Under the pieces are notes generated by a model. That model made no database searches and was not told the DNA's origin. It saw only the letters and a list, made by a program, of their open reading frames with translations. Made by a program: the position numbers and the translations under genes. Shown piece after piece: positions 8,617 to 29,368 of a stretch of 30,456 nt of DNA; position 1 is the first letter of the stretch; every line of letters begins with the position of its first letter. Source of the DNA: a virus (Duplodnaviria; Caudoviricetes); IMG/VR virus record IMGVR_UViG_3300014208_000102, positions 1-30,456 of that record; one strand, 5' to 3'.

Positions 8617-9054
8617 ATGGCGAAGAAAGAACCACAAGATATTACGCTGTCAAAAAAGCAACGGATATTTTTTGAGCGCATTGCTCTCGGCGATACTCTT
8701 GTCCAGGCGGCTAAAACTGCAGGCTATAAATCACCTCGTGCCTCTGCTTCAGAAACTGTGCAAAACCATACCGCCGCTTTTAGGGAAGCGTTTGTTTCAG
8801 CTGGCTACACAATCCCCGATATCGTCGAGGACATAATTGCTGGGACAAAGGCTATGCGGACAATCTCTGCGGTAAATACCGACAAGGAAGCCAACGGGAC
8901 GACGTGTGATTTTATTGAAGTTGCCGACTGGAACGCTCGCCATAAATTTATCGATAGTGCCATAAAGTTACAAGGATTTTACCCCAACGAAAAACTAGAA
9001 TTGGCCGGGAAGAATGGCGGAGCGTTTGAAATTACGGTGAAGTATGACAAATAA
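8617..9054 (+). CDS. terS: Terminase small subunit
   Basis: LSKKQRIF...QAAKTAGYKS HTH, DWNARHK, C-terminal KLELAGKNGG. Lies immediately upstream of TerL. Confidence 0.85.
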   Translation: MAKKEPQDITLSKKQRIFFERIALGDTLVQAAKTAGYKSPRASASETVQNHTAAFREAFVSAGYTIPDIVEDIIAGTKAMRTISAVNTDKEANGTTCDFIEVADWNARHKFIDSAIKLQGFYPNEKLELAGKNGGAFEITVKYDK

Positions 9055-10339: not shown

Positions 10340-12296
10340 CGAATTTTCCCAAGTAAAAAAGGACGTTCAGAACGCTGAAAAGTATTTCCAGAAGCCGCTA
10401 AAGTACGCAGTCGAAAGCCTCTATGACGAGATGGAAACATACCGCCGGTGGGTGGCGGGTAGGTTCACAAAAAAAGATATTGGTATAACCTTTACCAACC
10501 ACCTGCCGGTGAATGAGTTCTGGGTCAACAAGTCCGTTGTCCTTCCCACGCTATATTTCAAGCGGCCAGAATTGGCCGTCAATCCAGCCAATGAGCGGTA
10601 TGAAACTGAATACCTTGACCCGCAAACAAACCAACCGACCAAAAAAGAACAAGACCCCGCTGAAACTTCGAAGTTAGTCGAAGGCGTATTGAATTACTAC
10701 AGCTCCCCCAAAGCTCTTGACGATGAGAAGATGTTCTCCAAGATTATCGACGACGCCTATGTATGCGGGTTTGGCGTTCATTTCTCCGGCTGGGCTTACG
10801 AACGTGGCGAAACCGACATGAGCATTCAATGGGAGAAAGCCGTTCCCTTTGACCAAAAAGCCAATCAATTAGCGACTGAAAGAGTTCTGGCGTTGAAGCA
10901 AGCCAACGGCGAAGCCATTCCCGGAGAACAGTTGCAGTCCAAGGACACGACCAAGGTTGACGCCTTAATCTCTCAATACGTCAGTCCGTTTAACTTTGGT
11001 GTTGACCCAGAATGCACCGATCCAACGCTTAAAGACGCTCGCTTTGTTTATATCAATTACCGACTGCCGACTGAATACGTCAATCGCATTTTCGGTACTA
11101 GCTTTAACGGCGCAAACCTTCCGCTTGGCTACAGCAAGGTGGACCAAGACCCCAATAATCAGGATTTATCGTTCAAACGGAATGACATCAAGGCGGTTTG
11201 GAATAGGAATCTAGGCAAGGTGTTCTGGGTTGCTGATGAGAAGAGTGATGGTCCGATCAAGGTTGTTAACTGGCCGTGGGCAATGGAAGGCTTCCCTACC
11301 ACGATCTTGATGTTCAACCAGCAGAACGACACCTTCCAGCCTATCCCCGACTTTAGACAGATCAAGCATTTAGTCCTGGAAAAAATGCGGTGTCATAGCA
11401 AACTAGCGGAGCTATTACAGCGCATGTCTAGCGTTTATCTTTGCGACCAGGCTATCGAGAAGCTCTTGGGCGATATTTTAACAGGCGGAGAGGCGAGAGT
11501 TATCCCCGTTGACCGAAAGAATAACACGCTAAACCTTAGCGAAGTGATAAAACAAGTCGTTGATTTTACGGTATCTGCCGACATTCTGAACTACATTTAC
11601 CTTCTCAATGCGGCTATAGAGCGGACTTCCGGCATTCCTGACTACATGCGGGGATTGTCGATGGAAGCAAAGAAGTCGGCAACCGAGATCGTTCAGATGG
11701 GTAACCAGCAAAACCTACGCATTGACGAGAAAAAGACTAAGATCAGCAATTTCATAATCGACGTTAACCGTAAGCGGTTGCAGTTGCTACAGGAAAACGC
11801 CGTCCAGCCGCAGATAGTTAAGATCACCCATAACAACAAGGCGATCTGGAAAACCTGGTCAAGGGCTGATATTCAAGGCGACTTTGACTTTGACCTTGAC
11901 GTGTCTACAATGCTGGCGAAAAATAAAGAAGTCCAGCGCAAACAGGCTATGGACAAATACGACAAACTGCGGAATGACCCCATGTCGAACCCTAAGCCGT
12001 TACTTAAAGACGTTTATGACGCCTTTGGCGATAACAATATCCAAGAGCGCATTGTTGACCTTCCCCCGCCACCGCCGCCCAAGCCGGAAATTAAACTATC
12101 GGTGTCGATGAAGATCGAGCCGCAAAACCTAGCCGACCCGCAGATCATGGCACTAATCCAACAGGCGGGGATCAATCTTCCGCAAGCGCAACCAGTCCAA
12201 ACCCCAGAGGCACAAGGGCAGGAGAGCCTTGGCCTTAGACCTCAACAGCCGTTAAACATAGCGGCCAATGAAATGGTGGCGGCCAATGGCATATAG
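10332..12296 (+). CDS. Portal protein (P22-like size)
   Basis: 654 aa directly after TerL. VSPFNFGVDP, IERTSGIPDYMRG, KKSATEI, IQGDFDFDLDV, Q/P-rich tail. Confidence 0.88.
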   Translation: MDNEFSQVKKDVQNAEKYFQKPLKYAVESLYDEMETYRRWVAGRFTKKDIGITFTNHLPVNEFWVNKSVVLPTLYFKRPELAVNPANERYETEYLDPQTNQPTKKEQDPAETSKLVEGVLNYYSSPKALDDEKMFSKIIDDAYVCGFGVHFSGWAYERGETDMSIQWEKAVPFDQKANQLATERVLALKQANGEAIPGEQLQSKDTTKVDALISQYVSPFNFGVDPECTDPTLKDARFVYINYRLPTEYVNRIFGTSFNGANLPLGYSKVDQDPNNQDLSFKRNDIKAVWNRNLGKVFWVADEKSDGPIKVVNWPWAMEGFPTTILMFNQQNDTFQPIPDFRQIKHLVLEKMRCHSKLAELLQRMSSVYLCDQAIEKLLGDILTGGEARVIPVDRKNNTLNLSEVIKQVVDFTVSADILNYIYLLNAAIERTSGIPDYMRGLSMEAKKSATEIVQMGNQQNLRIDEKKTKISNFIIDVNRKRLQLLQENAVQPQIVKITHNNKAIWKTWSRADIQGDFDFDLDVSTMLAKNKEVQRKQAMDKYDKLRNDPMSNPKPLLKDVYDAFGDNNIQERIVDLPPPPPPKPEIKLSVSMKIEPQNLADPQIMALIQQAGINLPQAQPVQTPEAQGQESLGLRPQQPLNIAANEMVAANGI

Positions 12297-13053: not shown

Positions 13054-13965
13054 ATGGACGAGAAAGCACAAGCAGACGTGAATGCAATGGTTCAAGCGGT
13101 ATCAGGCGAAGTCACAACAGTCCAGGCAGAGGAACAGCCGAAAGCGGAAGCCGAAGTATCCGGGAATCCCGGCGAAACGTCAGCCGCTCTAAGCCAAGAC
13201 CTAAAGCCAGAGGAAACGGTAGACCCATTTGTCGAACAGGCAATGGCAGGGTTATCAAAGAAGTTGGGAAAAGAATTGACCAAAGATGAAGCTGTTCCCG
13301 AAATGGCTAAGTCGTTTGTCAACGCCGAGAACAAAATACAGTCTTTGTCGGAGCAGGTAAAAGGGTTGGTTGAGTATCGCACTTGGACTGAACAGGTAAT
13401 GGCTAATCCTAATTGGGAAAAGGCCCTGGCGGTTCTAACGGGCGAGAAGGTTGACGATATTGCGCCCGTTATTGACGAATTTGCTGATCCAGACCAATTG
13501 TCCCCGGCTCTTGCTAAGAAGTTTGCGGACTTGGAGTCAAGGTTGAAAAGTTACGAGGAAAAAGACCTTAATTCCCAAAAGACGGCCCAAGAGCAAGAAG
13601 TTAGCAAAGCACGAGAGGAAATTATTAAATGGGCTGGAGAGAAAGGGAACGAAGATTTTAGAAGTCTTTGTGACGATTACCAAAGCCAACTAAAGCTTAA
13701 CCCCTATGCTCCACAGCCGCAAGTTCTAAAGCAATGGGCTGCGCTTGTAGACGCCGGCTTATCGAAAGAGATGGCTTGGAATGCCTTACACCCCGATAAG
13801 TTTGCGGAACGAGTTAAAGCCAATATCGCCAAAGAGCAGAATAAAAAGCCTAACTTACCGCTCCCCAACAAGGCGGCCGCAGGGAACGAAGCGAATTTAG
13901 CTGATGAAACGGATATCAACCAGATCGTGAAAGGGATCGTTCAAAATTTAACTAAAAGGAGTTAA
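13054..13965 (+). CDS. Capsid scaffolding protein (putative)
   Basis: Acidic, disordered N-terminus and coiled-coil character (MAKSFVNAENKIQSLSEQV). Lies directly before the capsid gene. Confidence 0.75.
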   Translation: MDEKAQADVNAMVQAVSGEVTTVQAEEQPKAEAEVSGNPGETSAALSQDLKPEETVDPFVEQAMAGLSKKLGKELTKDEAVPEMAKSFVNAENKIQSLSEQVKGLVEYRTWTEQVMANPNWEKALAVLTGEKVDDIAPVIDEFADPDQLSPALAKKFADLESRLKSYEEKDLNSQKTAQEQEVSKAREEIIKWAGEKGNEDFRSLCDDYQSQLKLNPYAPQPQVLKQWAALVDAGLSKEMAWNALHPDKFAERVKANIAKEQNKKPNLPLPNKAAAGNEANLADETDINQIVKGIVQNLTKRS

Positions 13966-13968: not shown

Positions 13969-14976
13969 ATGGCTAACTATAACAGCTCGGTACTTGAAGA
14001 AGTATCGAGGCCCGGTATATTCGATAAGGCAATCCAACATGCTCTTATCGGTTCCGGTGTTTTCTACAATTTGATTGCTGGGAAATACGAAGGCGATACC
14101 AAGTCTAAGGTCGTTCCGGCTTTGGTAGAGTCAGCAGATGTTGGTAATGGGTATTTTGAGAATTTTGTCCTTCTGAAAGAGAATGACAATATTACCTGGA
14201 GGGACGCCACGGAAGCGTTGGGCAATACTGCCATCGACTTGGGGGACAGGCCACGGGTTGCGATCCAGAACTTGGTCGGTACTATCCCGCTGTTTCAGCG
14301 GGATCTTGACCTGAATACCCAGAACCCGGATAAAATTCAGGACTTGCTCTCTACCGCCATTATCCAGGCTAAAGACACCGTTACCAACAAGATGAATGTT
14401 GCCATGTTTGCGCTTGGTACGGAATTTGCGGCTAAGACCCTTTGGGGCTTGCGGTACTGGATCCCAGATAGTGCGACGACCGGATCGGTCGCTGGCATTT
14501 CCCAGGTTACCGAAGCGAACTGGCGGACGTATTCTAGGAACGCTGGCACAGATAGTTTTGCGACTAACGCCGAAGCGTACTTCGAAACGATGTTCATGGA
14601 AACCAATTTCAACGGCAATATGGCCGACTTGGTTATCATGGATAACACCAGCTTCGGGCGGTTCAAGGCTATTGTTAAAGCTCGTGAGCTTTATAATCCG
14701 CTTGATGATAAAGGGACTAGGCTTGCTGGGTTTGAAGGCATTCGTTATTCTGGCCGGTATATCATTCCTGACGCTAATTGCCCCGCTGGTTCGGCCTTTG
14801 CGGTTAACACCTCGAAGATCAAACTTGCTACCGTTAAGGGTTGCAATATGAGAATCGGGGAATTTATCGAGCCGGTTGGCGAACAGTTCAAATCGGCGAA
14901 GTTTACCTGGAGAGGTAATATCGTGTTCTTAACCCGTAAGTCGAACGGGAAGATTTACGGATTTACGACTGCTTAA
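13969..14976 (+). CDS. Major capsid protein (HK97 fold, putative)
   Basis: 335 aa after the scaffold. GLRYWI, VAGISQVTEANWRT, DLVIMD, AGFEGIRYSG, IIPDANCP, RKSNGKI are typical of this capsid group. AGGAG RBS. Confidence 0.88.
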   Translation: MANYNSSVLEEVSRPGIFDKAIQHALIGSGVFYNLIAGKYEGDTKSKVVPALVESADVGNGYFENFVLLKENDNITWRDATEALGNTAIDLGDRPRVAIQNLVGTIPLFQRDLDLNTQNPDKIQDLLSTAIIQAKDTVTNKMNVAMFALGTEFAAKTLWGLRYWIPDSATTGSVAGISQVTEANWRTYSRNAGTDSFATNAEAYFETMFMETNFNGNMADLVIMDNTSFGRFKAIVKARELYNPLDDKGTRLAGFEGIRYSGRYIIPDANCPAGSAFAVNTSKIKLATVKGCNMRIGEFIEPVGEQFKSAKFTWRGNIVFLTRKSNGKIYGFTTA

Positions 14977-14995
14977 TCAAAGGAGGTAAAAACCA

Positions 14996-15598
14996 ATGAA
15001 AAAATATTTTTTAGCTTTGCTTCTTTCTGCAATGATTGCAAGCGTTGCCGTTGCTTATCCGGTGGCGTCTTCGGAGTCAGAAAAACCCGCCGCTGGTGTT
15101 TTTAAGCAACTGTTAAGTTCTACCCAGGTCTTAGGGGCTAAGAGCCAGATCGGGGGAGCAACTTTCAAGTATGTTCTCAACAATAACGAAACCCAGAAGG
15201 CGTTTCGTGGTGAGCCAGCTTTCTATGACATTACTGAAGCGACTGACTATCATGTTAATCGCTATGGAACATCTGGCTCATTTGAGGCATATGCCGGTCA
15301 ATGGTATTGCGACATCAATGGTGATGGGTCCGTTGATCCCGGAGCAATGGGTTGGATTCAGATTGCCGGGGTAACCGTTGCCTTGGTTAGCTGGGAAACC
15401 GTTAGCATTGGCGACATTCTTATGGGTACGGTTTATAACGTAACTACGAATGAAGCTGGTGGTCGACATCTGCGCCGGAAAGGCGCGGCTGTTGATGGGA
15501 CTGCTAGCTGGGAAGTTACGACCCGGTGGCCGAAAGCCATGGAAGCTCGTGACTTTACGACCAAGCCTGTTTGGATGAAGATTTTTATTAAGGACTAG
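14996..15598 (+). CDS. Capsid decoration/cement-like protein with N-terminal Sec-type signal peptide
   Basis: Sits directly after the MCP. LG...FKYV...G...GWIQIAG...IGDIL pattern. N-terminus MKKYFLALLLSAMIASVAVA-YP. AAGGAGGT RBS. Confidence 0.65.
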   Translation: MKKYFLALLLSAMIASVAVAYPVASSESEKPAAGVFKQLLSSTQVLGAKSQIGGATFKYVLNNNETQKAFRGEPAFYDITEATDYHVNRYGTSGSFEAYAGQWYCDINGDGSVDPGAMGWIQIAGVTVALVSWETVSIGDILMGTVYNVTTNEAGGRHLRRKGAAVDGTASWEVTTRWPKAMEARDFTTKPVWMKIFIKD

Positions 15599-15607
15599 TT
15601 TGATAAC

Positions 15608-15633
15608 GGCGGGGAGGGGAAACTCTCCCCGCC
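15608..15633 (+). terminator. GC-rich hairpin after the capsid/decoration genes (terminator or mRNA-stabilising stem)
   Basis: GGCGGGGAGGG-GAAA-CTCTCCCCGCC, 11-bp stem with GNRA loop. No U-tract follows, so intrinsic termination is uncertain. Confidence 0.55.
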
Positions 15634-15657
15634 AAACAAAAATAAAGGAAAAATAAA

Positions 15658-16194
15658 ATGATTATAAATGAAAAGCACCATACACCTAATGATTGTTTGA
15701 TCGAAGCCCTTAATAGACTGGCGAGAAAGACCAAGGGCGATAGTTTAACCGTCAAGGAAATCATTGCTGAAGACAACGCCGTGAGAAAAGAGGCTGGATT
15801 ACGAGCTATTAAAGCCTATCCAGTTTTAGAAAAAGAATATAAACCATCTGAAAAGAGAACGTATTTCATGCGGCTGGTTGGGGCGGCAATCGTTAGGGGA
15901 AAAGGCGTATTGCCTAAGTGTGTCGCCGAGTATGAAGACTGCGAAGGCTTTGACGGAGCGGAAAATAAAGAAGAAATGGCGATATTGCTAGAGGAAGAAC
16001 TCGATAACCTGTTCCCTGGCATTCAAATCGAAAAGTCTCATAAGAATGCGGCCTTAGAGAGCATTGTCGCCAGAAAACAACTAGAAGCCAATAAGCAAGA
16101 AATAGCTTCAATCCCGCCAGACGTAGACAAAGCCGAGCCTGAAACGTCAGAATTGACCGAACCTAAAAAAAGAGGACGGCCAAAAGGAAGTTAA
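15658..16194 (+). CDS. Hypothetical protein with C-terminal AT-hook-like KKRGRPK
   Basis: 178-aa ORF, AAGGA RBS, ends EPKKRGRPKGS. Confidence 0.7.
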   Translation: MIINEKHHTPNDCLIEALNRLARKTKGDSLTVKEIIAEDNAVRKEAGLRAIKAYPVLEKEYKPSEKRTYFMRLVGAAIVRGKGVLPKCVAEYEDCEGFDGAENKEEMAILLEEELDNLFPGIQIEKSHKNAALESIVARKQLEANKQEIASIPPDVDKAEPETSELTEPKKRGRPKGS

Positions 16195-16197
16195 ACA

Positions 16198-17370
16198 ATG
16201 CGAACCCAACTAAGCGAACTACTTAAACAGATCGCTTACGACGCTAAAATAATCCCTTCCTATAGCGACACTATCCCAGCGGATAGCAAGACCCAGTTGC
16301 TTGATATGCTGAATACGCTAAGGCGACAGATAGCATATGACGCCGAATTGTCGTCTCTAACTAAGCCATTCTATATCAGGTTGCTACCGTTTTATTCCAC
16401 CGGCACGCTGGCTATTGTCCATGATGCGGTCGCTGTTACGGGGACGCTAACCGTCTTTACTGCGGACATGGAGGGAAGAAAAATACAGATCGGTAGCGAC
16501 GCTAATGTTTACACGGTTGAAGCGTATATCGACGGAACGCATATCAATATAGATCGCCCGTTTGCGGGAGCGACTGAAACGGTCGCCACTTATAATATCT
16601 ATCAGGATACCTACGAAGCCCCGGCGGAGTTATTGAAGATTATCGGCATTGTAGATATTAACAATCCAGGGCGTCCGATATGGGAGATAAAGTTAAAAGA
16701 CTTATGGCTTCAGTACGCCGACCCGACTAAATACGAAGGCGACCCGCTCTTGTACGCTAAAACTCAAAGTCAGGTAACGCGAGAAACGGTTGTGACCCCT
16801 ACCGCAGTAGCCGACGATCAAGTATCTGCGACGGGATTAACGGGTATATATGACGGATATTATAATGGCTGGACGATATTTAACTCGACTAGGAACATCG
16901 GACAACGGGTTAGCTCTTCTGTTTATTTGGCCGGAACGACAACGCTAGTTTTAGATACCGCCGTCGTTGGTGGAGCTATCACAGATAGTCTTGAGCTAAT
17001 AAAGAACACTTGGACCATGATCTTTCGCTGGGTTCCCGACGTTGATGATCGCTATCTTCATGGCGTTGGGATTATTTTCCCGCCGCCCTTAGTCAATGAT
17101 TATGACTATGACTACTCTATCCCGGAGATGTTTAGCGACGACATTCTAAAGGCCGGGGTGGTGGTTCAATGGCAAAAGACAAACGGCATTAAGGACGCGA
17201 ATACTTATGCTGAACTTAAACAGGATTTTAACGACTTAATGGATCAGGTTAAAAAATCCGAGTCGCAGATCATCAACAGAAAGTATCAGTTTATGCGTGG
17301 CTCAAGTAACGGACTGGAGTTGAACCCAATGGCTGGTGGCGGTTGGCCGAGCGATCCAACAATTTATTAG
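16198..17370 (+). CDS. Head-tail adaptor (tail tubular A-like) with inserted beta domains
   Basis: Helical N- and C-termini (LLDMLNTLRRQI; IPEMFSDDIL), YEAPAELLKII, GDPLLY, IFRWVPD. Inserted YSTGTLAIV...HINIDRPF module. Position after the head genes. Confidence 0.65.
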   Translation: MRTQLSELLKQIAYDAKIIPSYSDTIPADSKTQLLDMLNTLRRQIAYDAELSSLTKPFYIRLLPFYSTGTLAIVHDAVAVTGTLTVFTADMEGRKIQIGSDANVYTVEAYIDGTHINIDRPFAGATETVATYNIYQDTYEAPAELLKIIGIVDINNPGRPIWEIKLKDLWLQYADPTKYEGDPLLYAKTQSQVTRETVVTPTAVADDQVSATGLTGIYDGYYNGWTIFNSTRNIGQRVSSSVYLAGTTTLVLDTAVVGGAITDSLELIKNTWTMIFRWVPDVDDRYLHGVGIIFPPPLVNDYDYDYSIPEMFSDDILKAGVVVQWQKTNGIKDANTYAELKQDFNDLMDQVKKSESQIINRKYQFMRGSSNGLELNPMAGGGWPSDPTIY

Positions 17371-17379
17371 GAGGGAAAT

Positions 17380-17739
17380 ATGAAAAGATTATGGTTATTG
17401 GTTTTATTTTTGTTTCTAGCGGTTCCAGTCTTTGCCAATTATGTTCCTAAAAATTCAGAACTTGGAACAACCGACTGGAAGAACACGACTATTACAATTT
17501 ATGGCACAACCCAAACTTATGAAATGACCTTAGACGCTGGATCGGTTGTATATTTCGATCTTTACGCTGATGGCGGAGATTTATGTTGGTCTAAAGACGG
17601 TTCCACTACCGAAGCGTCGTATAAAATAGCTTCTGGGTCCACTTATCACGACGACAATGCTTATCCGATTAACACGACTTTTAAGTTTTGGAGTTTAACG
17701 GCTGGCATGGTTGCGCGAATGAGATACGGGTATCGTTAG
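17380..17739 (+). CDS. Small beta-rich virion-module protein with Sec-type signal peptide
   Basis: MKRLWLLVLFLFLAVPVFA-NY followed by about 100 aa of beta-strand-like sequence. AGGAGG RBS. Confidence 0.7.
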   Translation: MKRLWLLVLFLFLAVPVFANYVPKNSELGTTDWKNTTITIYGTTQTYEMTLDAGSVVYFDLYADGGDLCWSKDGSTTEASYKIASGSTYHDDNAYPINTTFKFWSLTAGMVARMRYGYR

Positions 17740-17835
17740 ATGACTGAAAGTAAAGGAGAAATCTTCGCCCTTATTATTATTGGGGTAGGAATTCTTTATT
17801 TAATGGGCAGATTTATGATGGGAGGCAATCAATGA
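17740..17835 (+). CDS. 31-aa single-pass membrane peptide, absent from the ORF track
   Basis: MTESKGEIFALIIIGVGILYLMGRFMMGGNQ. Starts 1 nt after the previous stop and ends in an ATGA overlap with the next gene. Confidence 0.55.
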   Translation: MTESKGEIFALIIIGVGILYLMGRFMMGGNQ

Positions 17836-20699
17836 ATTTAGTTGCTGGATTGATTGGCTCGTTTTTTGCTATTTTAAGCAGCGTATTTCTGCCGCCCGGA
17901 AACGTGGAACAGGTCTACGTTGGCTGGGGTGGATTAAAGACGCTCCCCCCTACTCACTATCGAGAATTAGTTGATATGCAGGTTTGCGATAATTACATTC
18001 TTGATTCAAAATCAGAAGAGAGTCCCCGATTTTCGGCCATGTCGGTTAGGCCAGGGGAAACGCCTTATCTTGACGATCCCGGCGGTTCGATCAGAGGTTT
18101 GTTTAACTTCAACTCCCCCTCTGGCGATAGCCTAATCATTATGGCCAATACTACCGGATTGTATAAGTCCAGCGGATCAAGCTGGACGCTTTTGTCCAAC
18201 GGCTTTAGCGATAATCCTTGGGAAGGGTATTTATATGGAGATCCAAACGTTACAAGGCTTTATCTTTGTAACGGCAGGGATAGCAATAAAAAGTATCTAA
18301 CCAAGGGTTTGTTTAATATGCAAAATCAGGCGGATTACACTGTCCTTTCAGGGTCCGTTACGTTTACAAAAAATTCATCAATAGCGACGGGAGACGCGAC
18401 CTCTGCCGGATCGATTGAGGTGGGAATGTATATCACTTCGACTTCGGAAGCGGCCGACACTAGCTGGGTAGAAGTTGTCAGCAAGGAAGGGACAAACTTA
18501 ACGCTTTCGACTCCGTGGGTGCTTTCAACCGTTGTGGCGAATAATGCGATCAGAAGCAACAACGTTGTCAATAGCAAGCATGTGACGGAGTACGAAGGAC
18601 ATATAGTGCTGGGGTATACGAATATTGACGAAGAAACAATAGCGAGTTCCACGACGACATCGACAGAAGGGTATGTTTTATTATTGGCAAAAGGAGCCTA
18701 TCAGAAGTTTACGGCGACAACAAATAACATTACGAAAGTGCGACTAGCTCTCTATCAGCTGGAATCTTCTTATTCTTCGTTTAATGTGGCGCCTCACGGC
18801 AATTTGATTGTTAAAATAAAAGAGTCGGTAGCCTCTTCCTTTTCTTTAGCGTCAATATCTAAACCGATTAGCGAATTACCGGACAATCTTTCAGATGTTT
18901 ATATTGATCTGGGGTATGTAGCGTTAACGGTGGGTAATGATTATTATATGACGATCGAAAGGGAAACGTCTTCCGACTCGCCCGTATATTTGAGCATAAC
19001 AACCGGAGGAGAAAGCGGCTATACTCATTCCTCTTCTGGTTTTCTTTCTGGCTGGAATACTGGAAGCACGACAATAGAAAAAGAAGTCGACTTGAATTCT
19101 AATTTCAATTATAACCCCGATACTTATATAAAATCAGATGATCCGACGGCCTTTTCTCAACAAAATGAAGCCGCCTTTAATGTCAATGGAACAACTCCAA
19201 GGAAGACGATAGTCCAATCGTTTACTTCTTACTGGTGGGTGAATCCACAATTAGCTGGAGCTCCAAAAGGCCAAGCATGGGAAAACGTTAAATTGAAAAT
19301 CTATAAAACGTCAACCGGTGTAACAGGCGAAGTCAAGGCTTTGCAATGTTTGCCTAATAGTGGGACCTTCTTCCTTATGGAACGGTCGTCCTGGAACAAT
19401 TATGCTGAAGTCTATCCATGGTATACAGCGGGCGCAAATCGGCCGGAACTAGATTATTCTACCCTGGGTGCTAGCTCTGTCATTCTGCCGTCTAACGAGG
19501 GATGGGTGACTTTTGAAGTCACAACTATTGTTTCCAGCTGGGAACCCTTAACCTGGACCAATGGCATATTGATTACCGCAGAAACTGGCGGATCGTTCAA
19601 TTTTTCGGCCTTCGATAGCGGCGTAAATGTTCCCACATGGTCCTTTACCGTCAAAACAGGGACAACCGAAAGTGGCAAAAGCCTTAATTATTCCCTCATC
19701 AGCGAAGACTCCGATTCTTCAACCATAATATATTCTCGGAGGTTCAAGCCGGAGCTTTTCCCGACGGACAATACTTTTAAGGTTCCTGGCCAGGTTTGCG
19801 GCTTATTGTCGACCGGCGGGTATTTAGTTGTGGGAGCCAGAAATCCTGACTCTCTTCATTACTATCGCTATACAGGCGAAACAACTGATGGATTAGGGAT
19901 AGACTTTGTTACGTCTATTCCAGGAATTACTATCGGCAGTTCAAAATCAATCGCCCAGCTTCCTAAAGGAGCTGGATCACTATTCTTTAGTGGAGCTGGT
20001 GTTTATAATATTAACGGCTTAAATATTCAGTTAAGGAGTGGGAACATAAGGGAAGAAGCCAAGAAGTTTGCTAGCTATCGGGATTCGTCCTCCTGGTATT
20101 CTGGCTTAGCCTCCCTAATGCCTCAAGGCGTCGTGCTGCCCACTAAAGATACTTATTTGCTGGCCGTGCCACTAGCCCTGGGATTCAATAGCTATGTTTA
20201 TGCCTACAATTACGCTAACGACACATGGACTCGCTGGACAGGCCTTTATCCCACCTCAATGCTAGTAAGGGATATAGTTGGGCAAGAGCCACAATTATAT
20301 TATGGCTATAACACCGGCCAGGTCTACACCCAAGATCAAACCGGATCAACGACCCAAGAAGCGATAGCGGAATTCTATCTTAGCGGGAAAGACCTTAGCA
20401 AAGACAAGCAACTTGATAAAATAGAACTTTTTGGGATTATGGACAATCCGTTAAGCGGGTCCTATGTTACACTAGAGGTTTCATCGACCGATCCCGGATC
20501 GTCACAAACTTCTACGACGACCAAAAAAATGACTTTTGGGCCCTTTAATAATTCTATTACTAACGCAAACAAAACTTTTACATTCTTGCCTAATTATACA
20601 GCAAAAGAATTCAAGATTAGGTTTACACAAAAAGCCACAGAAGGTGCGGCTAACTTGAGATCAATCAGGTATAAATATACAGTAAAAGGGGGAACATAA
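17832..20699 (+). CDS. Tail nozzle/stabilisation protein (tubular B / P22 gp10-like) with inserted accessory domains
   Basis: WGGL...MSVRPG start, RLYLCNGRD, YVYAYNYANDTWTRW, LYYGYNTGQVY, KDKQLDKI, FKIRF end. A central DTYI...GWVTFEVTTIVSSW...NGILI block resembles DNRLRE. Hydrophobic N-terminus. Confidence 0.7.
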   Translation: MNLVAGLIGSFFAILSSVFLPPGNVEQVYVGWGGLKTLPPTHYRELVDMQVCDNYILDSKSEESPRFSAMSVRPGETPYLDDPGGSIRGLFNFNSPSGDSLIIMANTTGLYKSSGSSWTLLSNGFSDNPWEGYLYGDPNVTRLYLCNGRDSNKKYLTKGLFNMQNQADYTVLSGSVTFTKNSSIATGDATSAGSIEVGMYITSTSEAADTSWVEVVSKEGTNLTLSTPWVLSTVVANNAIRSNNVVNSKHVTEYEGHIVLGYTNIDEETIASSTTTSTEGYVLLLAKGAYQKFTATTNNITKVRLALYQLESSYSSFNVAPHGNLIVKIKESVASSFSLASISKPISELPDNLSDVYIDLGYVALTVGNDYYMTIERETSSDSPVYLSITTGGESGYTHSSSGFLSGWNTGSTTIEKEVDLNSNFNYNPDTYIKSDDPTAFSQQNEAAFNVNGTTPRKTIVQSFTSYWWVNPQLAGAPKGQAWENVKLKIYKTSTGVTGEVKALQCLPNSGTFFLMERSSWNNYAEVYPWYTAGANRPELDYSTLGASSVILPSNEGWVTFEVTTIVSSWEPLTWTNGILITAETGGSFNFSAFDSGVNVPTWSFTVKTGTTESGKSLNYSLISEDSDSSTIIYSRRFKPELFPTDNTFKVPGQVCGLLSTGGYLVVGARNPDSLHYYRYTGETTDGLGIDFVTSIPGITIGSSKSIAQLPKGAGSLFFSGAGVYNINGLNIQLRSGNIREEAKKFASYRDSSSWYSGLASLMPQGVVLPTKDTYLLAVPLALGFNSYVYAYNYANDTWTRWTGLYPTSMLVRDIVGQEPQLYYGYNTGQVYTQDQTGSTTQEAIAEFYLSGKDLSKDKQLDKIELFGIMDNPLSGSYVTLEVSSTDPGSSQTSTTTKKMTFGPFNNSITNANKTFTFLPNYTAKEFKIRFTQKATEGAANLRSIRYKYTVKGGT

Positions 20700-20701
20700 T
20701 A

Positions 20702-21967
20702 ATGGTTAGTATGGTTAGTCAAAATCCATCGACGAAAAAAAAACCTGATGACTTGGCTTGGCAGGCACTTAATGCGTCATTGGTGGGAATGCAACAAGCA
20801 AAAACGCCCGGATCAGCCGCTTTTTCTTCTGCGATAGCCCCACAAACTGGAACAACAGTGGGGTCGCATGGTTTAACAATTGGTGAACAACAGCAAGCGG
20901 CGATAAAGGCTGCGCAGCAAACGGCGCAGCAAACGGCGCAGCAAACGGCGCAGCAAACGGCGCAACAAACGGCGCAACAGCCTTCGTCCCTTTTTCAAAC
21001 GGCGTTAACCCAACCAGCCGTTACGACAACGGCTCCAACATCATTAACAGGCGCGACGCCTGATGTGACAGCTAGAAATACTTTTCAAAAAGCTTTAGGT
21101 CCGCAAATAACAGAGGGGATAAATACCGCTACATCGCAAGTATCTCCGTATATGACTGGTCGACGGTCGGCCACTATTCAGGAAAATGTCCTAAAGCCTG
21201 CAACGCAAGCCCTAGCGCAGTTTGATATTGAGCAAGCGAGAACGGCAACAGCCGACGCCAAACAAAAAGTTAAAGATGAGCTGGCGGCGTTATTGCCGTT
21301 GGTCCAGGCTGGAAATGCTGGCGCAATTGCTCGGTACAATCAGCTTATGAACCAACAATATGGGGGAACGGCAACAACGGCACCTACCCCAACTGCACCT
21401 ACCCCAACTGCACCTATCCCAGCGACACCGGGATTAACGGCAGCCGCAATCGATTGGGCGGGTGGAGCTGCCACAACTAGCGAAACAGGAAAAGCGGCTA
21501 TACAGGGACAAATGGCGGCACTTGAGCAGAAAGTAGAGGCTGGGGACCAGGCAAGCGTTGACCAGTATAACGCGTTAGCTAACCAGTATTACGGGACAAC
21601 TGGGAAAATATATAAGACCCTACCAACAGGTTCGGCAGGGAAATTGATTAACTTAAAATATGCTGACCAAATTAATGCCGTTGAAGGTAAAATGTCGACA
21701 ACAAAACTAAAATCGCTTAGCGATACGCTTGGAAATTTGCATGGATATGGAGGGTTTGGGGACACGCTCAATAAAATATGGAGCGATTTTGATGTTCTGC
21801 TGAATGAAGCGACGACCGAATCGTTTCAAAATGAGGCTGAAATGCAAAAGTTCGTTGATATTGGCAACTTTTTGGCCAGCTTGCCTAATTCAATTAATTT
21901 TAATGACATAAACCAAATAAGTGCAGTAGCTCAAAAAGCCGCTCCGCTCAAAAAATACGGATATTAA
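20702..21967 (+). CDS. Internal virion / DNA ejection protein (putative)
   Basis: A/Q/T-rich helical low-complexity protein located after the nozzle gene. Confidence 0.6.
   Translation: MVSMVSQNPSTKKKPDDLAWQALNASLVGMQQAKTPGSAAFSSAIAPQTGTTVGSHGLTIGEQQQAAIKAAQQTAQQTAQQTAQQTAQQTAQQPSSLFQTALTQPAVTTTAPTSLTGATPDVTARNTFQKALGPQITEGINTATSQVSPYMTGRRSATIQENVLKPATQALAQFDIEQARTATADAKQKVKDELAALLPLVQAGNAGAIARYNQLMNQQYGGTATTAPTPTAPTPTAPIPATPGLTAAAIDWAGGAATTSETGKAAIQGQMAALEQKVEAGDQASVDQYNALANQYYGTTGKIYKTLPTGSAGKLINLKYADQINAVEGKMSTTKLKSLSDTLGNLHGYGGFGDTLNKIWSDFDVLLNEATTESFQNEAEMQKFVDIGNFLASLPNSINFNDINQISAVAQKAAPLKKYGY
20912..20980 (+). repeat. 12-bp coding tandem repeat GCGCARCAAACG (AQQT), about 5.7 copies
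   Basis: Read directly from the sequence. Confidence 0.92.
21380..21420 (+). repeat. 15-bp coding tandem repeat GCACCTACCCCAACT (APTPT), about 2.7 copies
   Basis: Read directly from the sequence. Confidence 0.88.
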
Positions 21968-21977
21968 GGAGGAGGAA

Positions 21978-22757
21978 ATGAGCCTACAAGATTTAAGGAC
22001 CAGATTAGACCAGCTAAAAGAAAACGAGCGCAAACAAGCAATTATAAACGAGGAAACAAAGAAGGGACAGTTGGGAGAGAGGTTGCTGGATTTTGGAACT
22101 AAGGCCATCCCGGCAGGCGTTGCCGCATATTTAACCAGCGGGGTTCTCCCCGCCATATTGCCAGGCGGAACGACAGTAGCGGCGGCTGGCCCCGCCACAG
22201 CGGCAGGCGTAGGCGCAACGGCGGATATAGGCCTTCCCGCGGCCATTGGCGCAAATCTAACAAAACCTACAGCTTCTACAATCATGGCGGCTCTTGAAGG
22301 AGTAACAAAAGGGGCAGAAGCAAAGACTCCGGAAGAGGCGGGACTGGCTGGCTTTAAAGCCGGAGTTGCTCCATCAATGGACAAGTTTGAATTGGACAAA
22401 ATGAAAGACTTTGGGCTTATTCCTTCTACTGCTAAAAGGGGAGAAATAAACTATGGAAAGCCGGGGTTGACCTTGGCAGACGTTCAGGGGTTATCTATTC
22501 CTAGCGGGCTACAGCCAACGTATACCCTAGGGAAAAGCGGGGCGTCGGTTAAACTTGCTCCTATTCCTAAAAAAACCACATCGACTACTTTTAAACCATC
22601 ACAAGAACTTTTTGAAATTGTAAACGGTTACATGGTAGCAGGAAAAGCCCCAACCGCAGAGGATAAGGCGGAAATGCAACAACGATATTCGCCGCAAGAA
22701 TTTAACTGGGTAATGAGTAAGTTCAAAGAATCGATTGCTCCTATAGTTTTGAAGTAA
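21978..22757 (+). CDS. Internal virion / ejection protein with Ala/Gly-rich hydrophobic segment (putative)
   Basis: AIPAGVAAYLTSGVLPAILPGG...AAGVGA glycine-zipper-like stretch. AAGGAGGAGG RBS. Confidence 0.6.
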   Translation: MSLQDLRTRLDQLKENERKQAIINEETKKGQLGERLLDFGTKAIPAGVAAYLTSGVLPAILPGGTTVAAAGPATAAGVGATADIGLPAAIGANLTKPTASTIMAALEGVTKGAEAKTPEEAGLAGFKAGVAPSMDKFELDKMKDFGLIPSTAKRGEINYGKPGLTLADVQGLSIPSGLQPTYTLGKSGASVKLAPIPKKTTSTTFKPSQELFEIVNGYMVAGKAPTAEDKAEMQQRYSPQEFNWVMSKFKESIAPIVLK

Positions 22758-22769
22758 AGGAGATTAAAA

Positions 22770-25700
22770 ATGGCATGGGTTCCCCCTTCTTTAAGAGAGA
22801 AAAATCAGACAGAAGTTGTTGACGTGCCAGTAAAATCTACTGGGAAATGGGTTCCCCCTTCTTTAAGAAAAGACGCAATAGCAACAACTCCAACGGCAAA
22901 AGCCCTCCCAACAGAAACAGCTGACCCTTCTTTTATTGATACCGCTATAAATGCCGTTAAAGACGTCATCCGCCCCGTGAAAAAGGCTTATAAAACGTAT
23001 CTTGACGTTGTAAGTCCTGCTGAAAAACTAGGCGTTGATGTAGGGGAAAGCATGGTTCAAGCGGCCATTGATCGCAGTAGTTTTGAGCGGTTTGAAAAAA
23101 CCTTGCCAGAATCGGGGGGTGTTACCCCATTTAGTACGAAGAAAGAATTTCGTGAGGCCAATCCCCTCCAAAAGCTAAGCAAAATGGCCCAAGATCCCGC
23201 CATGTGGCTTATTGCTCCCCCTGGAATGAATGCCCCAGTTCTTCTAGCAAGGGCGGCAAAGCAAGTAGTTTCTGCCGATGTTGCGCTAACGTCTGCTATT
23301 GCTAAAGCAAAGGCTGGTCAGACGTTATCGGAAGTCGAGGCCAAAGCGTTTAAGACTTGGCAAGCAGGCCAAGCAAAGGTTGCTAAGGTTGCGCCTAAGG
23401 CTTTACCGCCAAGAAATGAAGCCGCCGCTTACAAAGAAGCCTTAGCCAACAAAGTTAATCGGCCTGTTGCTACCCTTCCGGCTTTAACGCCAGAAGTTAA
23501 AAAGAACGTTAGCGGGGAGTTGCCGAAACTTCCAGCGCAAAAGTCCGTAAGTCCAGAATTGCCAAACGCTGAAATAATGAACAGGTTATCTGTTGACGAC
23601 CGAACCTTCATTTATAAAGCTGAAAAAGATATTAAAAAAGCATTAAAGCTCCAAAAAACTGCTCCATTAACGGCTGACCCATTATCAGGAATAAAAACAA
23701 AAGAAGATTATCAAGAATATATAAAGTCAGTTCAAACATGGATTAATGATTTTACAAAAAAACGATTAAAATATTCCCGACCTTCCGGCTCTCTCGGCAT
23801 AGTGCCGGAAGGAACTACAGGCATTATTCCTTACGGGGAACCGATTTTATCCCATAAAACTGTTAGGCGGCTTTCGCCGGATGTTCCGGCAAACAAAGCA
23901 ATGGAGGATTGGAGCAAAGAACAACAAAATATTTTAGAAAGTTGGAACCAGGCGCAGGGCAAAGGGAGCGCAAAGCTCGGCCTTACCCCTTTATCCGCCG
24001 CCGAGCGATCCTCGGCTCTAAAGAACCTACCCGGTGCGGCCTTTGGCATTGAACAAGAGTATGACGAACATGGCAGAGTTAAAGGGTATCGTTATAACGT
24101 TGGCAAGGGATTAATTGGCGTGGCTGGAGCTGGGGCGATAAGAGCCGGAGGCGGTAAATTTTTGGGGGCTATTTCTAAAGATTTTAACCCTCAACAGTAT
24201 GTATTGCAAAATGTAGCCAAACAAACGGCCGCCAGGGCAACCGAGAAAAAAGGCATTAGCTTTCTAGCCGACGCAAAAAGAAAACTGGTAGACTTTGCCG
24301 CTCCAATTGAAGACGCGCTAGGAATGGCAGAAGCTAAATACAAATTCCAAGTTATGCCGTCAAAAGACGTGCGACTACAGATCGATCGTGTTTTACGTTC
24401 TCCTACTTTAGCTGGTCAATTTGCCAAGGATAACGGGCTCGAAAAAGTTATCAAAAACGTAGATAACATCGACAATCTTGACCAATACTTGATTGCTAAA
24501 CACGCCTTAAAGTTATCTCAAAAAGGGATAGAAACTGGCAGAAATGCGGCTAAAGACTTGGCACTTGTTGAAGCGTTTGCGCCTAAATATGAACCATTAG
24601 CAAAGGAAGCGAAGAACTATGCCAGCAAGTTGCTCGATTATGTTACTGATAGTGGACTTATAAGCAAAGACTTAAACAAAGCATTAAAAGCTGAATACCC
24701 TGATTATGCCCCTATGAATAGGATTATGACGGAGATTGAAAACGTAAAGAACCCAGGGAGATCTGGCATTGCTTCCGTTACCAGCCAGAGCGTAGTCCAG
24801 AAAATAAAGGGGTCAAAACTTGAAGTTGAAAGTCCATTAGCTTCTTTATTGACCAAAACAGATACGGCCTTTAACCAGGCGGAACGTAACAAAGCGGCTC
24901 AAATGATTACTGATTATGCAAAACTACCTAACAATCCTTTTCAGTTAAGAAGGCTGGCGGCAGACGAACCAATCGGCAATAAGGCCACGATTTCTGTTTT
25001 TAAGAATGGGGTTAAAGAGGTATGGGAAACAACCCCGGAAATAGCCGAAGCCGCCAAGAACCTAAACGCCCAACAAATGAACATCGTTCTGCAAACATTG
25101 GCCCTTCCTACCAGAATTGCAAAGACAGGTATCACGGGCTTGTATATGCCTTTTACGGCCTCCAACATTATAAAAGATCAAGGGCTTACGGCCGTAACTT
25201 CAAACCGCACGCTGGCGACCTCTATTGCCAATCCCGTCAATTTTGTTAAGTCTTTGTTTTCTGTCTTAAAGCATGATGAGCTTTATGATGAACTGGTAAG
25301 AGCTGGAGCGGGGGGAACGTCTTTTGATATTGCTCGTAACCAACCACATTTAACCATTGACGCAATACGAGCTAATCGCAACTTGCCGTCAAAAATTAAA
25401 TACGTTGTCAGACACCCAAGTGAATTATTGCGGGCAGTAGAAAATATTGTTGGACGATCAGAAGAATTGACCAGAATGACTCAGTTTAGAGGAACTCGCC
25501 AGGCGTTATTAAAAGAAGGGCGAACAGCGCAAGACGCTACACTATTGGCGGCGCAAGCGGCAAGAGAAAATTCGGCCAATTTTGCCCGGCGTGGTGAATG
25601 GGGGCAAGTCCTTAATGCTACCATTCTTTACCTTAACGCTGGCATTCAGGGTAGTAGATCGCTTGTGAAGGCCCTAGCTCGTGATCCCAAGGGAACTTCA

Positions 25701-26822
25701 ACAAAAATAGCGGCGACTGTTTTTGCCCCGGTAGCCATGACAACCCTTTGGAATATTTCAGACCCTAAACGGCTTGAGGCTTATAAAGATATCCCAGAGT
25801 ATGAAAAGAATATGAACCTGATATATATCCCTTCCAACCCGACAAAAGACGAAAAAGGCCGCTGGAATGTCATTAAATTTCCTCTCCCTTTTGGCGTTGG
25901 AGGGCTGGGGTATGCCATTAGAAAACCGATAGAACAAGCTTATAACATTGATAAATTCAAAGTGCTAGACATGGCAAATCAAATTATTTCTGCTGTTACG
26001 CCAGTTAATCCAGAACCGGGATCAATGATTTCTACCGTTCTTCCCCAAGCAATTAAGGGAGAAGTAGAATGGGCGGCAAATAAAGACTTGTTTACTGGTT
26101 TACCCATTGTTCCTGAAAAAATGAAAAATATCCCTCCTGTAGAACAAGTGCGCCCAGGAACGTCAGGGACTGCTAGGGCAATAGGAAGAGTTACCAACGC
26201 CTCTCCAATACAAATAGAGCATTATGTTAGGTCAAAGTTTGGTGGGTTAGGCTCTCAAGCTCTTCATGCCAGTGATGTAGTCGCCAATAAATTAGGCCTT
26301 TTGCCAAAAGAACAAATAGGCGGGGAAGCAATGGGGGAAGGGTTTGCTAGGCGATTTATTAAGGCAAGGGGGGGAGAGGCTGAAAGAAAAGTTGTTGAAG
26401 GGATTATGCCTGCGCTTGGAAAACAGGCAACGGCACAGTTACAAGCAAAACAACAGGCGGAATTGATGTGGCAAAAACTTAGCGATAAGACTGTTCCGCT
26501 GGTCGAAAGAAACAAACTCTTAGCTACTATCCCCCCAGAAAGTGATTTATATAAAAAAATATCTCAAATTGCTCAAGATGAAAGCAAAGGGATAACTTAT
26601 TCTGATCGATTGATAAAACAATTACAAGTAAGAAACGGAGCAAGGGCTAATTATATTATTAACCAAGCGGCCACTATGCCACGGCAAGAAGCCGAAAATT
26701 ATCTAAATGAGCTAATTAAAAAAGGGCTTATTAATGGGGCGGCATCAAACCAGATTAATCAACTTATCCCACAATTAAAAGAAAGAGAAAAAAAAGCCGG
26801 GAGAGAACTATGGGCAAAATAA
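22770..26822 (+). CDS. Large internal virion protein with C-terminal LPD38-like domain
   Basis: 1350 aa. SEELTRMTQF, ANFARRG, LYLNAGIQG, IPEYEK...KFPLPF...EWAANKDLFTGLPIVP...IEHYVRSKFGGLG. Confidence 0.78.
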   Translation: MAWVPPSLREKNQTEVVDVPVKSTGKWVPPSLRKDAIATTPTAKALPTETADPSFIDTAINAVKDVIRPVKKAYKTYLDVVSPAEKLGVDVGESMVQAAIDRSSFERFEKTLPESGGVTPFSTKKEFREANPLQKLSKMAQDPAMWLIAPPGMNAPVLLARAAKQVVSADVALTSAIAKAKAGQTLSEVEAKAFKTWQAGQAKVAKVAPKALPPRNEAAAYKEALANKVNRPVATLPALTPEVKKNVSGELPKLPAQKSVSPELPNAEIMNRLSVDDRTFIYKAEKDIKKALKLQKTAPLTADPLSGIKTKEDYQEYIKSVQTWINDFTKKRLKYSRPSGSLGIVPEGTTGIIPYGEPILSHKTVRRLSPDVPANKAMEDWSKEQQNILESWNQAQGKGSAKLGLTPLSAAERSSALKNLPGAAFGIEQEYDEHGRVKGYRYNVGKGLIGVAGAGAIRAGGGKFLGAISKDFNPQQYVLQNVAKQTAARATEKKGISFLADAKRKLVDFAAPIEDALGMAEAKYKFQVMPSKDVRLQIDRVLRSPTLAGQFAKDNGLEKVIKNVDNIDNLDQYLIAKHALKLSQKGIETGRNAAKDLALVEAFAPKYEPLAKEAKNYASKLLDYVTDSGLISKDLNKALKAEYPDYAPMNRIMTEIENVKNPGRSGIASVTSQSVVQKIKGSKLEVESPLASLLTKTDTAFNQAERNKAAQMITDYAKLPNNPFQLRRLAADEPIGNKATISVFKNGVKEVWETTPEIAEAAKNLNAQQMNIVLQTLALPTRIAKTGITGLYMPFTASNIIKDQGLTAVTSNRTLATSIANPVNFVKSLFSVLKHDELYDELVRAGAGGTSFDIARNQPHLTIDAIRANRNLPSKIKYVVRHPSELLRAVENIVGRSEELTRMTQFRGTRQALLKEGRTAQDATLLAAQAARENSANFARRGEWGQVLNATILYLNAGIQGSRSLVKALARDPKGTSTKIAATVFAPVAMTTLWNISDPKRLEAYKDIPEYEKNMNLIYIPSNPTKDEKGRWNVIKFPLPFGVGGLGYAIRKPIEQAYNIDKFKVLDMANQIISAVTPVNPEPGSMISTVLPQAIKGEVEWAANKDLFTGLPIVPEKMKNIPPVEQVRPGTSGTARAIGRVTNASPIQIEHYVRSKFGGLGSQALHASDVVANKLGLLPKEQIGGEAMGEGFARRFIKARGGEAERKVVEGIMPALGKQATAQLQAKQQAELMWQKLSDKTVPLVERNKLLATIPPESDLYKKISQIAQDESKGITYSDRLIKQLQVRNGARANYIINQAATMPRQEAENYLNELIKKGLINGAASNQINQLIPQLKEREKKAGRELWAK
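22775..22868 (+). repeat. 22-bp direct repeat ATGGGTTCCCCCTTCTTTAAGA encoding WVPPSLR twice
   Basis: Exact copies at 22775-22796 and 22847-22868. Confidence 0.9.
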
Positions 26823-27901
26823 CAACCCTACTATTACTCTTGCTCTTATCCTTTCCAGCCCTCGCGCTCCAACCTCTCCAGCGGCTCAACGTCGTCGACG
26901 ATCTCACGGCGACACTTCAGCGCAACTTCGAGAATCTGGAATACGAAAGAAAAAAAATATCCAAAAACATTGAATTCATTGAAAGAAATGCAATTCAGAT
27001 TAACAACCTTAAGCTCGCCACTAATCCAGCCAACACTCTGCAAATTACTGCTAAGTCATCAGGGAGTCTGCCGAATAACGCCAACCCTATTGAAATAGCT
27101 ATAAACGATGGGGCGGGAACTGTTTTAAGATCAAGAGTCAGCTCTTACAAAGGCGGCACCTCCTCCATAACTTTGGCTGATGGGGCTGGTTATTGGGGAC
27201 GGCCGAGTGCTAGCCCTCGTTACAACGCCTATCTATATGCCATTTGGGACGGATCAGGGATCGTTTGGGCATTGAGCATGAACTCTTTTTATCTTAATGT
27301 CGAACCGACGACTGACGCTACAGCCCTTAATTATTTTAAGATTGAAGACAATTCCACCTACATCAGAAATGCCGCCGATAATTGCGTTTGCGTCGGCATG
27401 ATCGAATATTCATATACTACAACAAACAATCCCGATCACAATATCGTTGTAAAAAAAATTCTCTACCGGCCGACTGATTTTGTCGTCAATCATCACAACG
27501 CAGTTCTTGGAACGACAATCGGCGGAACGCCCATTGCCGATCGAGCAATTTTAACCCAGCAGGTTTTGTGGACCGGCACTTATCAGATATTTGCCAACAT
27601 GAACTATTATTCAGTCGGGCCGTCGGTGACGATAACACTAGACATTAGGCGAGGCACAACATATGCCGGAGGCGCTGTTCTCATGCACTCCGAAGAGGGC
27701 TATTCTGGAGGAGAGAGGAGAAATATATTTAAGTCCCTATTTTATGATCTGGTGGCTGGCGATACGGTATATATGGGCGCTTCAGTCAGCAATGGGGCAG
27801 CCGGGCAAGCTTATATTTTTGGTAACAGCGACGCCAACGCAGAGACAGCGACGAGTTTTGCGATGATACTTTTAGATCGATATTATGGGCTTTGGTACTA
27901 A
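26810..27901 (+). CDS. Tail fibre / receptor-binding-like protein with Sec-type signal peptide
   Basis: MGKITTLLLLLLLSFPALA-LQ, short coiled coil (LQRNFENLE), beta-rich middle, C1q/TNF-like C-terminus (GTYQIFA...LVAGDTVYM...TSF). Confidence 0.6.
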   Translation: MGKITTLLLLLLLSFPALALQPLQRLNVVDDLTATLQRNFENLEYERKKISKNIEFIERNAIQINNLKLATNPANTLQITAKSSGSLPNNANPIEIAINDGAGTVLRSRVSSYKGGTSSITLADGAGYWGRPSASPRYNAYLYAIWDGSGIVWALSMNSFYLNVEPTTDATALNYFKIEDNSTYIRNAADNCVCVGMIEYSYTTTNNPDHNIVVKKILYRPTDFVVNHHNAVLGTTIGGTPIADRAILTQQVLWTGTYQIFANMNYYSVGPSVTITLDIRRGTTYAGGAVLMHSEEGYSGGERRNIFKSLFYDLVAGDTVYMGASVSNGAAGQAYIFGNSDANAETATSFAMILLDRYYGLWY

Positions 27902-27904
27902 TTT

Positions 27905-28748: not shown

Positions 28749-28759
28749 AGGGGGTAATT

Positions 28760-29368
28760 ATGTTAAGGATTTTAATGCTTTTGGTTTTGTTTTCGGCCCC
28801 GTGTTTTGCCGCTGGACAGTTGATCGACGACTTTGAGGCCGGACTGACCGGCCGTGGCTGGTGGGTCTTTGACGCCAAGTGCGAGATCGTGCCGGCGCCG
28901 TCCGGCGGCGAGAAGAACGGGACCAAAGCCCTACAGATCAGCGGCCCCGCGACCTCTTATTATGTGGGTGGTCTGGGTTGCTATCTGGCAAGGGAAAAAC
29001 AAGGCCTCTCCAAATATAAGGTCGTCCAGTTGGATATTTACGGCAACGGGCCGGGATCGGGGAGTCTGAAGATCGAACTAATCGATGATGACAATAAGGG
29101 CTGGGCGTGCGAGCAAAACGAAAAATACCAGCCGACCGCTGATGATCGTTTTACCAGCGAAATCAGGGTGGCCTGGCGGGGCTGGAAGCGGGTCTATTTG
29201 CCGCTCTCCAACTTCATTGACGATAATCCCTTAGTTGGGGATGATCTATGGAACCCAGCGCAGGAGAACGGCTCTGGCGGCCTTTTACAGATTCAGCTGA
29301 TAGCAATCGCCAGCCAGCCAAAGGGGAAGGTCAATCTTTATGTAGACAGCCTTCAGCTGGTGGAATGA
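28760..29368 (+). CDS. Secreted carbohydrate-binding (CBM11-like) protein
   Basis: Signal peptide MLRILMLLVLFSAPCFA-AG. LIDDFE, KALQI, LDIYGNG, GWKRVYLPLSNF, LYVDSLQL. Confidence 0.75.
   Translation: MLRILMLLVLFSAPCFAAGQLIDDFEAGLTGRGWWVFDAKCEIVPAPSGGEKNGTKALQISGPATSYYVGGLGCYLAREKQGLSKYKVVQLDIYGNGPGSGSLKIELIDDDNKGWACEQNEKYQPTADDRFTSEIRVAWRGWKRVYLPLSNFIDDNPLVGDDLWNPAQENGSGGLLQIQLIAIASQPKGKVNLYVDSLQLVE

Follow-up and report, generated by a model that had tools for sequence, protein, structure and literature searches.

Signal peptides on virion genes were studied in a single viral contig of 30,456 nucleotides (IMG/VR record IMGVR_UViG_3300014208_000102; "the window" denotes this whole stretch), and three genes named by their first positions, 14996, 17380 and 26810, form the subject of this report. 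The right arm runs in the order terminase, P22-like portal, scaffold, major capsid protein (MCP), 14996, 15658, adaptor, 17380, 17832 (nozzle-like), the three large internal proteins, 26810 and genes of lysis type. A terminase large subunit (TerL), a portal and an HK97-type MCP are all present, the MCP profile matching PDB entry 6j3q (E 0.0016). Because none of the 30 window proteins scanned against Pfam and PHROG matched a tube, sheath or tape measure, the window is read as that of a short-tailed (podovirus-type) member of the Caudoviricetes. The names scaffold, adaptor, nozzle, ejection and fibre were given from gene position and from homology that is weak or indirect, with no direct family match.

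Signal peptides in the virion module

Signal peptides were identified with a fixed rule of our own, distinct from SignalP, which demands a positively charged n-region, a nine-residue hydrophobic core and a small-x-small cut site at residues 15 to 32. Five of the 35 window genes tested passed, namely 14996, 17380, 26810, the holin-like 27905 and the host-type 28760, and the terminase, portal, scaffold, MCP, adaptor and three ejection-type proteins were negative. The rule was satisfied by 60 of 16,500 shuffled N-termini (0.36%) and by none of 6,451 internal segments of window proteins. Cleavage of 14996, 17380 and 26810 is predicted after residues 20, 19 and 19, respectively, and a second hydrophobic segment is absent from all three mature proteins. 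Strong Shine-Dalgarno sites precede 14996 and 17380 (both AGGAGG) and 17832 (GGGAGG); the start of 26810, which overlaps the end of 22770, has a GGGAG site. No better or conserved start was found downstream of the leaders, either in these three genes or in the homologues of 14996 described below. The first-pass annotation of this DNA had proposed n/h/c signal peptides on the three genes and none on the portal, scaffold, MCP, adaptor and internal proteins, and both assignments were borne out; a conserved downstream start that would skip the hydrophobic segment, which it had named as an alternative, did not come to light.

Table 1. Features of the window discussed in the text.
Feature	Position	Strand	Basis and remarks
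Terminase large subunit	9044..10339	+	phrog_2, E 3e-32; signal rule negative
P22-like portal	10332..12296	+	phrog_1216, E 2e-16; PF16510, E 2e-5; signal rule negative
Scaffold, by position	13054..13965	+	No family match; precedes the MCP here and in loci L003 and L035; no signal
Major capsid protein	13969..14976	+	phrog_9953, E 6e-31; no signal
Cement-like protein, 200 residues	14996..15598	+	Signal at residues 1-20 (14996-15055); follows the MCP
Signal-less protein with basic RGRP-type C-terminal tail	15658-16194		Between cement and adaptor
Head-tail adaptor with inserted beta domains	16198..17370	+	Position and homology; no signal
Small beta-sandwich protein, 119 residues	17380..17739	+	Signal at residues 1-19 (17380-17436)
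31-codon open reading frame with one hydrophobic stretch	17740..17835	+	Sequence; between 17380 and nozzle; may not be a gene
Nozzle-like tail protein, about 400 inserted residues	17832..20699	+	Uncharged hydrophobic N-terminal segment at about residues 3-20; fold putative
Three ejection-type internal proteins (20702, 21978, 22770)	20702..26822	+	Position after nozzle; LPD38 in 22770; orthologues in locus L020; no signal
Fibre-like protein, 363 residues	26810..27901	+	Signal at residues 1-19 (26810-26866); mature N-terminal helix conserved, C-terminal part exchangeable
Holin-like protein	27905-28171	+	Labelled from its position; no family match
Lysin-like protein	28168-28557	+	Labelled from its position; no family match
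Host-derived exported protein, outside the virion module	28760..29368	+	Host marker

Conservation of the leaders and the inner/outer split

A search of cluster representatives with 14996 yielded 33 homologues (34 family members with the query), and all 33 begin with a signal, 32 by the rule and one after 11 extra residues. Mean pairwise identity in the family is 22% in the signal region against 40% in the mature region, a faster drift that is expected of a leader. Positions K2 and A20 are at least 90% conserved, and the first 28 positions of the family profile match the leaders of secreted proteins in the PDB. Apart from leaders and designed propellers, nothing among the PDB sequences matched the cement or nozzle profiles; none of the 34 members matched Pfam or PHROG, and a word-index search with 14996 returned only itself. 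The Atlas model of 14996 compares with viral clusters at template-modelling (TM) scores of 0.55-0.64, below the Atlas naming bar; some of these clusters hold Phage_cement families. The protein resembles the cement families PF09956 (Phage_cement_2), PF22758 (Phage_cement) and PF23982 (XM1 gp53) in its position after the MCP and in predicted TM scores of 0.48-0.68 to the clusters holding them, but differs from these known cements in the N-terminal signal present in all 34 members. Relatives also directly follow the MCP gene in loci L002 and L035. The mature part of 14996 is thus predicted to have a cement-like fold rather than that of the non-virion cargo which the first-pass annotation had considered.

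The 14996 family is related to a second cement group (HHalign 72%) comprising proteins of loci L012, L021 and L022 and of Myxococcus phage Mx9; the L012 protein carries a signal, and those of L021 and L022 do not. When the L012 cement is cut after A-V-A, it starts within one residue of the first Met of the signal-less L021 and L022 cements. Because the cut form aligns with their start, this supports the view that the cement leader is a removable add-on, cleavage of which would give an ordinary cement. None of 11 MCP homologues passed the rule. Two loci of this group have peculiarities of their own: L021:6897-7806 encodes a tandem pair of cement paralogues, neither with a signal and the second starting at TTG, and the MCP gene at L012:2097-3822 (G113:C21, minus strand), uninterrupted in L021, contains an insertion with a LAGLIDADG-like open reading frame (ORF; Pfam E 0.05). 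This insertion, for which no Rfam match was obtained, is probably a group I intron.

Orthologues of 17380 were located directly after the adaptor in L021, L022 and L035. All three carry signals, of differing letters, and none of the adaptor homologues in L012, L016, L021, L022 and L035 does. The Atlas neighbours of 17380 are viral proteins of 98-159 residues (TM score about 0.6). Two further loci from the scan with this gene, L013 and L014, were dropped as wrong-sense matches through leader letters only.

It is highly improbable that the signals arose by chance resemblance or from misassigned starts. The rule does err on occasion, since the ORF with the second part of the interrupted L012 MCP begins with a false signal-like stretch lying in the insertion, and a tape-measure-like protein in genome G032 was also flagged. 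Against such an origin stand the rate of 0.36%, the strong ribosome sites and the retention of signals in the 33 cement homologues and in the positional orthologues, including those of 17380 and of the fibre; this conservation all but refutes it.

Six related genomes (the window, G147, G148, G113, G149 and G123) were compared, and none of their 38 core virion genes carries a signal. Myxococcus phage Mx9, Stenotrophomonas phage BUCT555 and Bradyrhizobium phage ppBjS10J-1 have the same gene order and distant MCPs (21-27% identical to that of the window); unlike the window, these three cultured phages have signals on 0 of 36 virion genes. Locus L035 was located through mature cement motifs, and every ORF of at least 80 residues was scored without selection: of the 16 genes that span portal to first ejection gene, six carry a signal, and the portal, scaffold, MCP and adaptor are all among those without. 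The occurrence of signals on parts in outer positions, and of none on the core, is a real and conserved feature. A further locus, L015, was dropped for its distant terminase.

The nozzle-like 17832 had been described in the first-pass annotation as having an uncharged hydrophobic N-terminus, and it indeed lacks both a positive n-region and a cut site. The hydrophobic segment occurs in all nine members of the nozzle family, none of which passes the rule; in these nine the net charge before the hydrophobic core is 0 or -1, and there is mostly no A-x-A. Identity is 48% in the segment against 55% in the following domain. Judged by its sequence, the N-terminus of the window family is not a classic signal. 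The family alignment (A4) matches the nozzles of L016 (E 1.6e-6) and L035 (E 7.5e-8; HHalign 83%), which have classic signals at the place aligned with the window segment, in L035 via a shared SVFL. Each is the only nozzle-like gene of its locus, with no signal-less duplicate. The L016 nozzle matches the post-adaptor proteins of ppBjS10J-1, Mx9 and BUCT555 (E 6e-9 to 1e-3) and phrog_3287 (E 3e-17); phage records gave no match to 17832 itself or to mature 26810. The start of the window nozzle is likely a leader turned into an uncleaved membrane anchor or a structural helix.

The nozzle anchor would be the clearest case of another arrangement, in which the leaders tether proteins to the inner membrane or stay unprocessed late in infection, and the parts are added on the cytoplasmic face without ever crossing. 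The charge, the missing cut site and the conservation of the nozzle segment are consistent with it, and it would solve the problem of DNA closure discussed below. Genes 14996, 17380 and 26810, however, conserve a positive n-region and a small residue at -1, which predict translocation and cleavage, and no conserved internal start follows the cut site, so that we hold tethering to be decidedly unlikely.

A single orthologue of 26810 was available, in L020; it shows the same overlap with the end of the large internal gene and has a signal (1/1) of different letters. The two proteins share the mature start motif QPLQ...NFEN.EY.RK and then diverge into different C-termini; fibres are usually built in this way. 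From residue 63 to its end at 363, 26810 is 51% identical to the last 300 residues of a chromosomal lipoprotein in genome G132 (L034:3053-4120, G132:C58), which contains a Thr-rich linker and is encoded between mlaD and a phosphorylase gene. The phage-specific motif at the mature N-terminus is absent from this lipoprotein. The C-terminal module of the fibre is therefore a domain that the host itself exports, which suggests that such domains fold or are modified outside the cytoplasm.

The lipoprotein match can also be taken to mean that the signal-bearing proteins are exported envelope cargo outside the virion (receptor decoys, superinfection exclusion factors or surface adhesins), derived from virion parts and kept in the late operon. 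We regard this as unlikely, although 28760 shows that the phage does carry exported host genes, sister phages manage with a signal-less cement, and signal-bearing envelope proteins encoded by phages are described in the accessible part of one report (10.64898/2026.10.24.761521). Cargo would not be expected to fill the place of 14996, the sole cement-like gene in the window, which stands directly behind the MCP in three genomes; nor would it account for the signal-bearing nozzles of L016 and L035, which have no signal-less duplicate in the loci examined. The mature N-terminal motif of the fibre, common to the phages and absent from the host lipoprotein, is what is expected of a virion-attachment segment.

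Probable host and proposed site of virion assembly

Homologues of 28760 are found in 130 of 146 genomes of Margulisbacteria (Candidatus Margulisiibacteriota), with up to 57% identity; the protein matched no Pfam or NCBIfam family. The host of the phage is probably a member of this diderm phylum. Omp85 and an S26 signal peptidase I are present in all five Margulisbacteria genomes tested, from which it follows that the host would have a periplasm. One Margulisbacteria genome includes a 4-kb contig, which may be mis-binned, with a related MCP, an adaptor and two signal-bearing genes. In G123 a long-tailed prophage of about 24 kb (L031:15044 to L032:19414, G123:C5) is integrated by a tRNA-Asn gene, with an integrase and flanking host genes; five of its virion genes carry signals. 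It shares two genes of the lysis region with the window, the holin-like 29508 (73% DNA identity) and 28554. The nozzle and cement profiles matched none of the 146 genomes.

On balance we think it probable that the cement 14996, the beta protein 17380 and the fibre 26810 are exported to the periplasm and join the particle at lysis. Sec would export the three proteins, LepB (leader peptidase) would cut them in the periplasm and they would fold there. The mature parts would then bind DNA-filled heads when holin lesions mix the compartments, or just after release, and a nozzle anchored in the membrane would mean that tails are completed at the inner membrane. The likely gain would be that domains of host-surface type fold or are modified in the compartment where they evolved, and adhesins would also be kept away from immature heads. 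Disulfide formation was considered as the main driver of export and found weak, as the three proteins have only 1, 1 and 2 cysteines.

A number of observations weigh against assembly in two compartments. The split between inner and outer parts is systematic, as the first-pass annotation had said, but with qualifications among the outer parts. The nozzle segment is conserved in sequence like a structural element rather than a leader, and in the six related genomes just 2 of the 7 genes at the cement position carry a signal. The signal-less cements of close sister phages show that export is dispensable for a cement, which can reach the capsid without it. The cement query included the signal and may have favoured signal-bearing matches; matches whose best stretch starts behind the signal carry one too. 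A count of 22 of 22 outer genes with signals was not relied on, as that class was chosen after the sequences had been seen, is partly circular and leaves out small signal-less genes such as 15658. The nozzle and fibre folds are putative, single-sequence AlphaFold models having reached a mean pLDDT (predicted local distance difference test) of only 34 for 17832 and 35 for mature 26810, too poor for a fold search. The pattern is also not phylum-wide, being found only in G123 among seven Margulisbacteria genomes with an HK97-family capsid gene. Across the other seven capsid-gene stretches, only one of which reaches the fibre genes, a single ORF of 47 passes the rule, probably falsely. A host-wide requirement for export is unsupported, given this limitation to G123. 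The nozzles of P22 and T7 close the DNA channel. The same closure is reported for solved podoviruses in the part of a structural study at hand (10.64898/2026.02.16.706137), and the main difficulty is that a nozzle outside the cytoplasm would be hard to square with it.

Filamentous phages likewise make virion proteins with Sec leaders processed by leader peptidase (M13 pVIII and pIII; PMC4823517, in the section available). Their coat proteins, unlike those of the window, remain anchored in the inner membrane through a transmembrane helix and wrap single-stranded DNA as it is extruded; the three window proteins have no second hydrophobic segment, and the HK97-type head, portal and TerL of the window do not fit such a route. 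Particles finished while crossing the envelope and leaving without lysis in the filamentous manner would fit the signals of the outer parts and the membrane-type segment at the tail tip. This is very improbable for a phage with an HK97-type head and portal, with holin-like and lysin-like genes after the fibre (relatives carry an amidase there) and lacking a match to any secretin or assembly ATPase in the 30 proteins that were scanned.

Tailed phages are assumed to assemble in the cytoplasm, and phage genes with signals tend to be annotated as lysis genes or host-modifying cargo. The leaders predict a departure from the making and joining of all virion parts in the cytoplasm. The MAT adhesins of Bdellovibrio have a signal peptide before a phage-fibre-like domain, but these are chromosomal surface proteins, whereas the signal-bearing genes of the window occupy virion-gene positions of an intact phage. 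Signal peptides are given as fewer than 5% among viral membrane proteins in the portion of a survey consulted (PMC4641393), and a figure legend, the relevant part of its source, shows the P22 tailspike without one (10.64898/2026.09.13.751334). Xanthomonas phage PhiXacm4-11 resembles the window in having a cement and in the additional beta-sandwich domains of its nozzle, and the word "signal" is absent from the part of its description available (10.64898/2026.02.16.706137). That word is equally absent from the accessible text of the HFTV1 structure paper (10.1101/2024.12.09.627619), and HFTV1 was rejected as an archaeal precedent, the available parts of two sources giving no signal peptide on its virion proteins (10.64898/2026.09.13.751334, 10.1101/2024.12.09.627619). 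A full-text literature search of partial coverage, in which supplementary annotation tables could list some cases, found no description of signal peptides on the cement, nozzle or fibre of a tailed phage.

More tentatively, and with less expectation of being right, it may be proposed that a broad group of short- and long-tailed phages divides virion building between two compartments. The cytoplasm would be the place for head, adaptor and ejection proteins and the periplasm that for cement, fibres and, in certain lineages, the essential nozzle; the tail would be closed and armed only at the inner membrane, as lysis begins. Leaders would come and go on single genes, and fibre modules would be exchanged with surface lipoproteins of the host. 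If the outer parts are indeed exported, particle maturation would be coupled to lysis, receptor-binding proteins could be recruited from among the surface proteins of the host, and many phage genes now labelled "secreted hypothetical" would be structural. Should the parts prove to be present in particles, this would be a new form of tailed-phage virion biology. The locus offers natural controls: sister cements with and without a signal, two forms of the nozzle leader, an integrated prophage and a named host phylum.

Additional features of the locus

The MCP of the window matched nothing in scans of viral contigs and of genome contigs, and no spacer-like match was established for window positions 10457-30456. 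The holin-like 27905 and the lysin-like 28168 had no match in Pfam, PHROG or NCBIfam; in the G123 prophage the position of the lysis gene is taken by an amidase. Two features were overlooked in the first-pass annotation, the signal-bearing 28760, which lies beyond the region it covered, and the 31-codon hydrophobic ORF at 17740-17835. A search of L020 and L021 at E 0.1 gave no match to the latter.

Basic-tailed genes at the position of 15658 are also present in L012, L016, L021 and L022. An inserted beta domain found in both the adaptor (16198-17370) and the nozzle (17832-20699) matches N-terminal segments of fibre PHROGs, and the L016 adaptor has two copies of it. The large ejection-type protein (22770-26822 in the window, compared with L020:5228-9028) is 57-69% identical between the window and G147, although their MCPs are only 23% identical, and the virion module is mosaic. 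In the early region, a DUF6745-containing gene with a small upstream partner was identified at 1049-2478 and a repeat-rich, DUF7409-like protein at 3615-4196.

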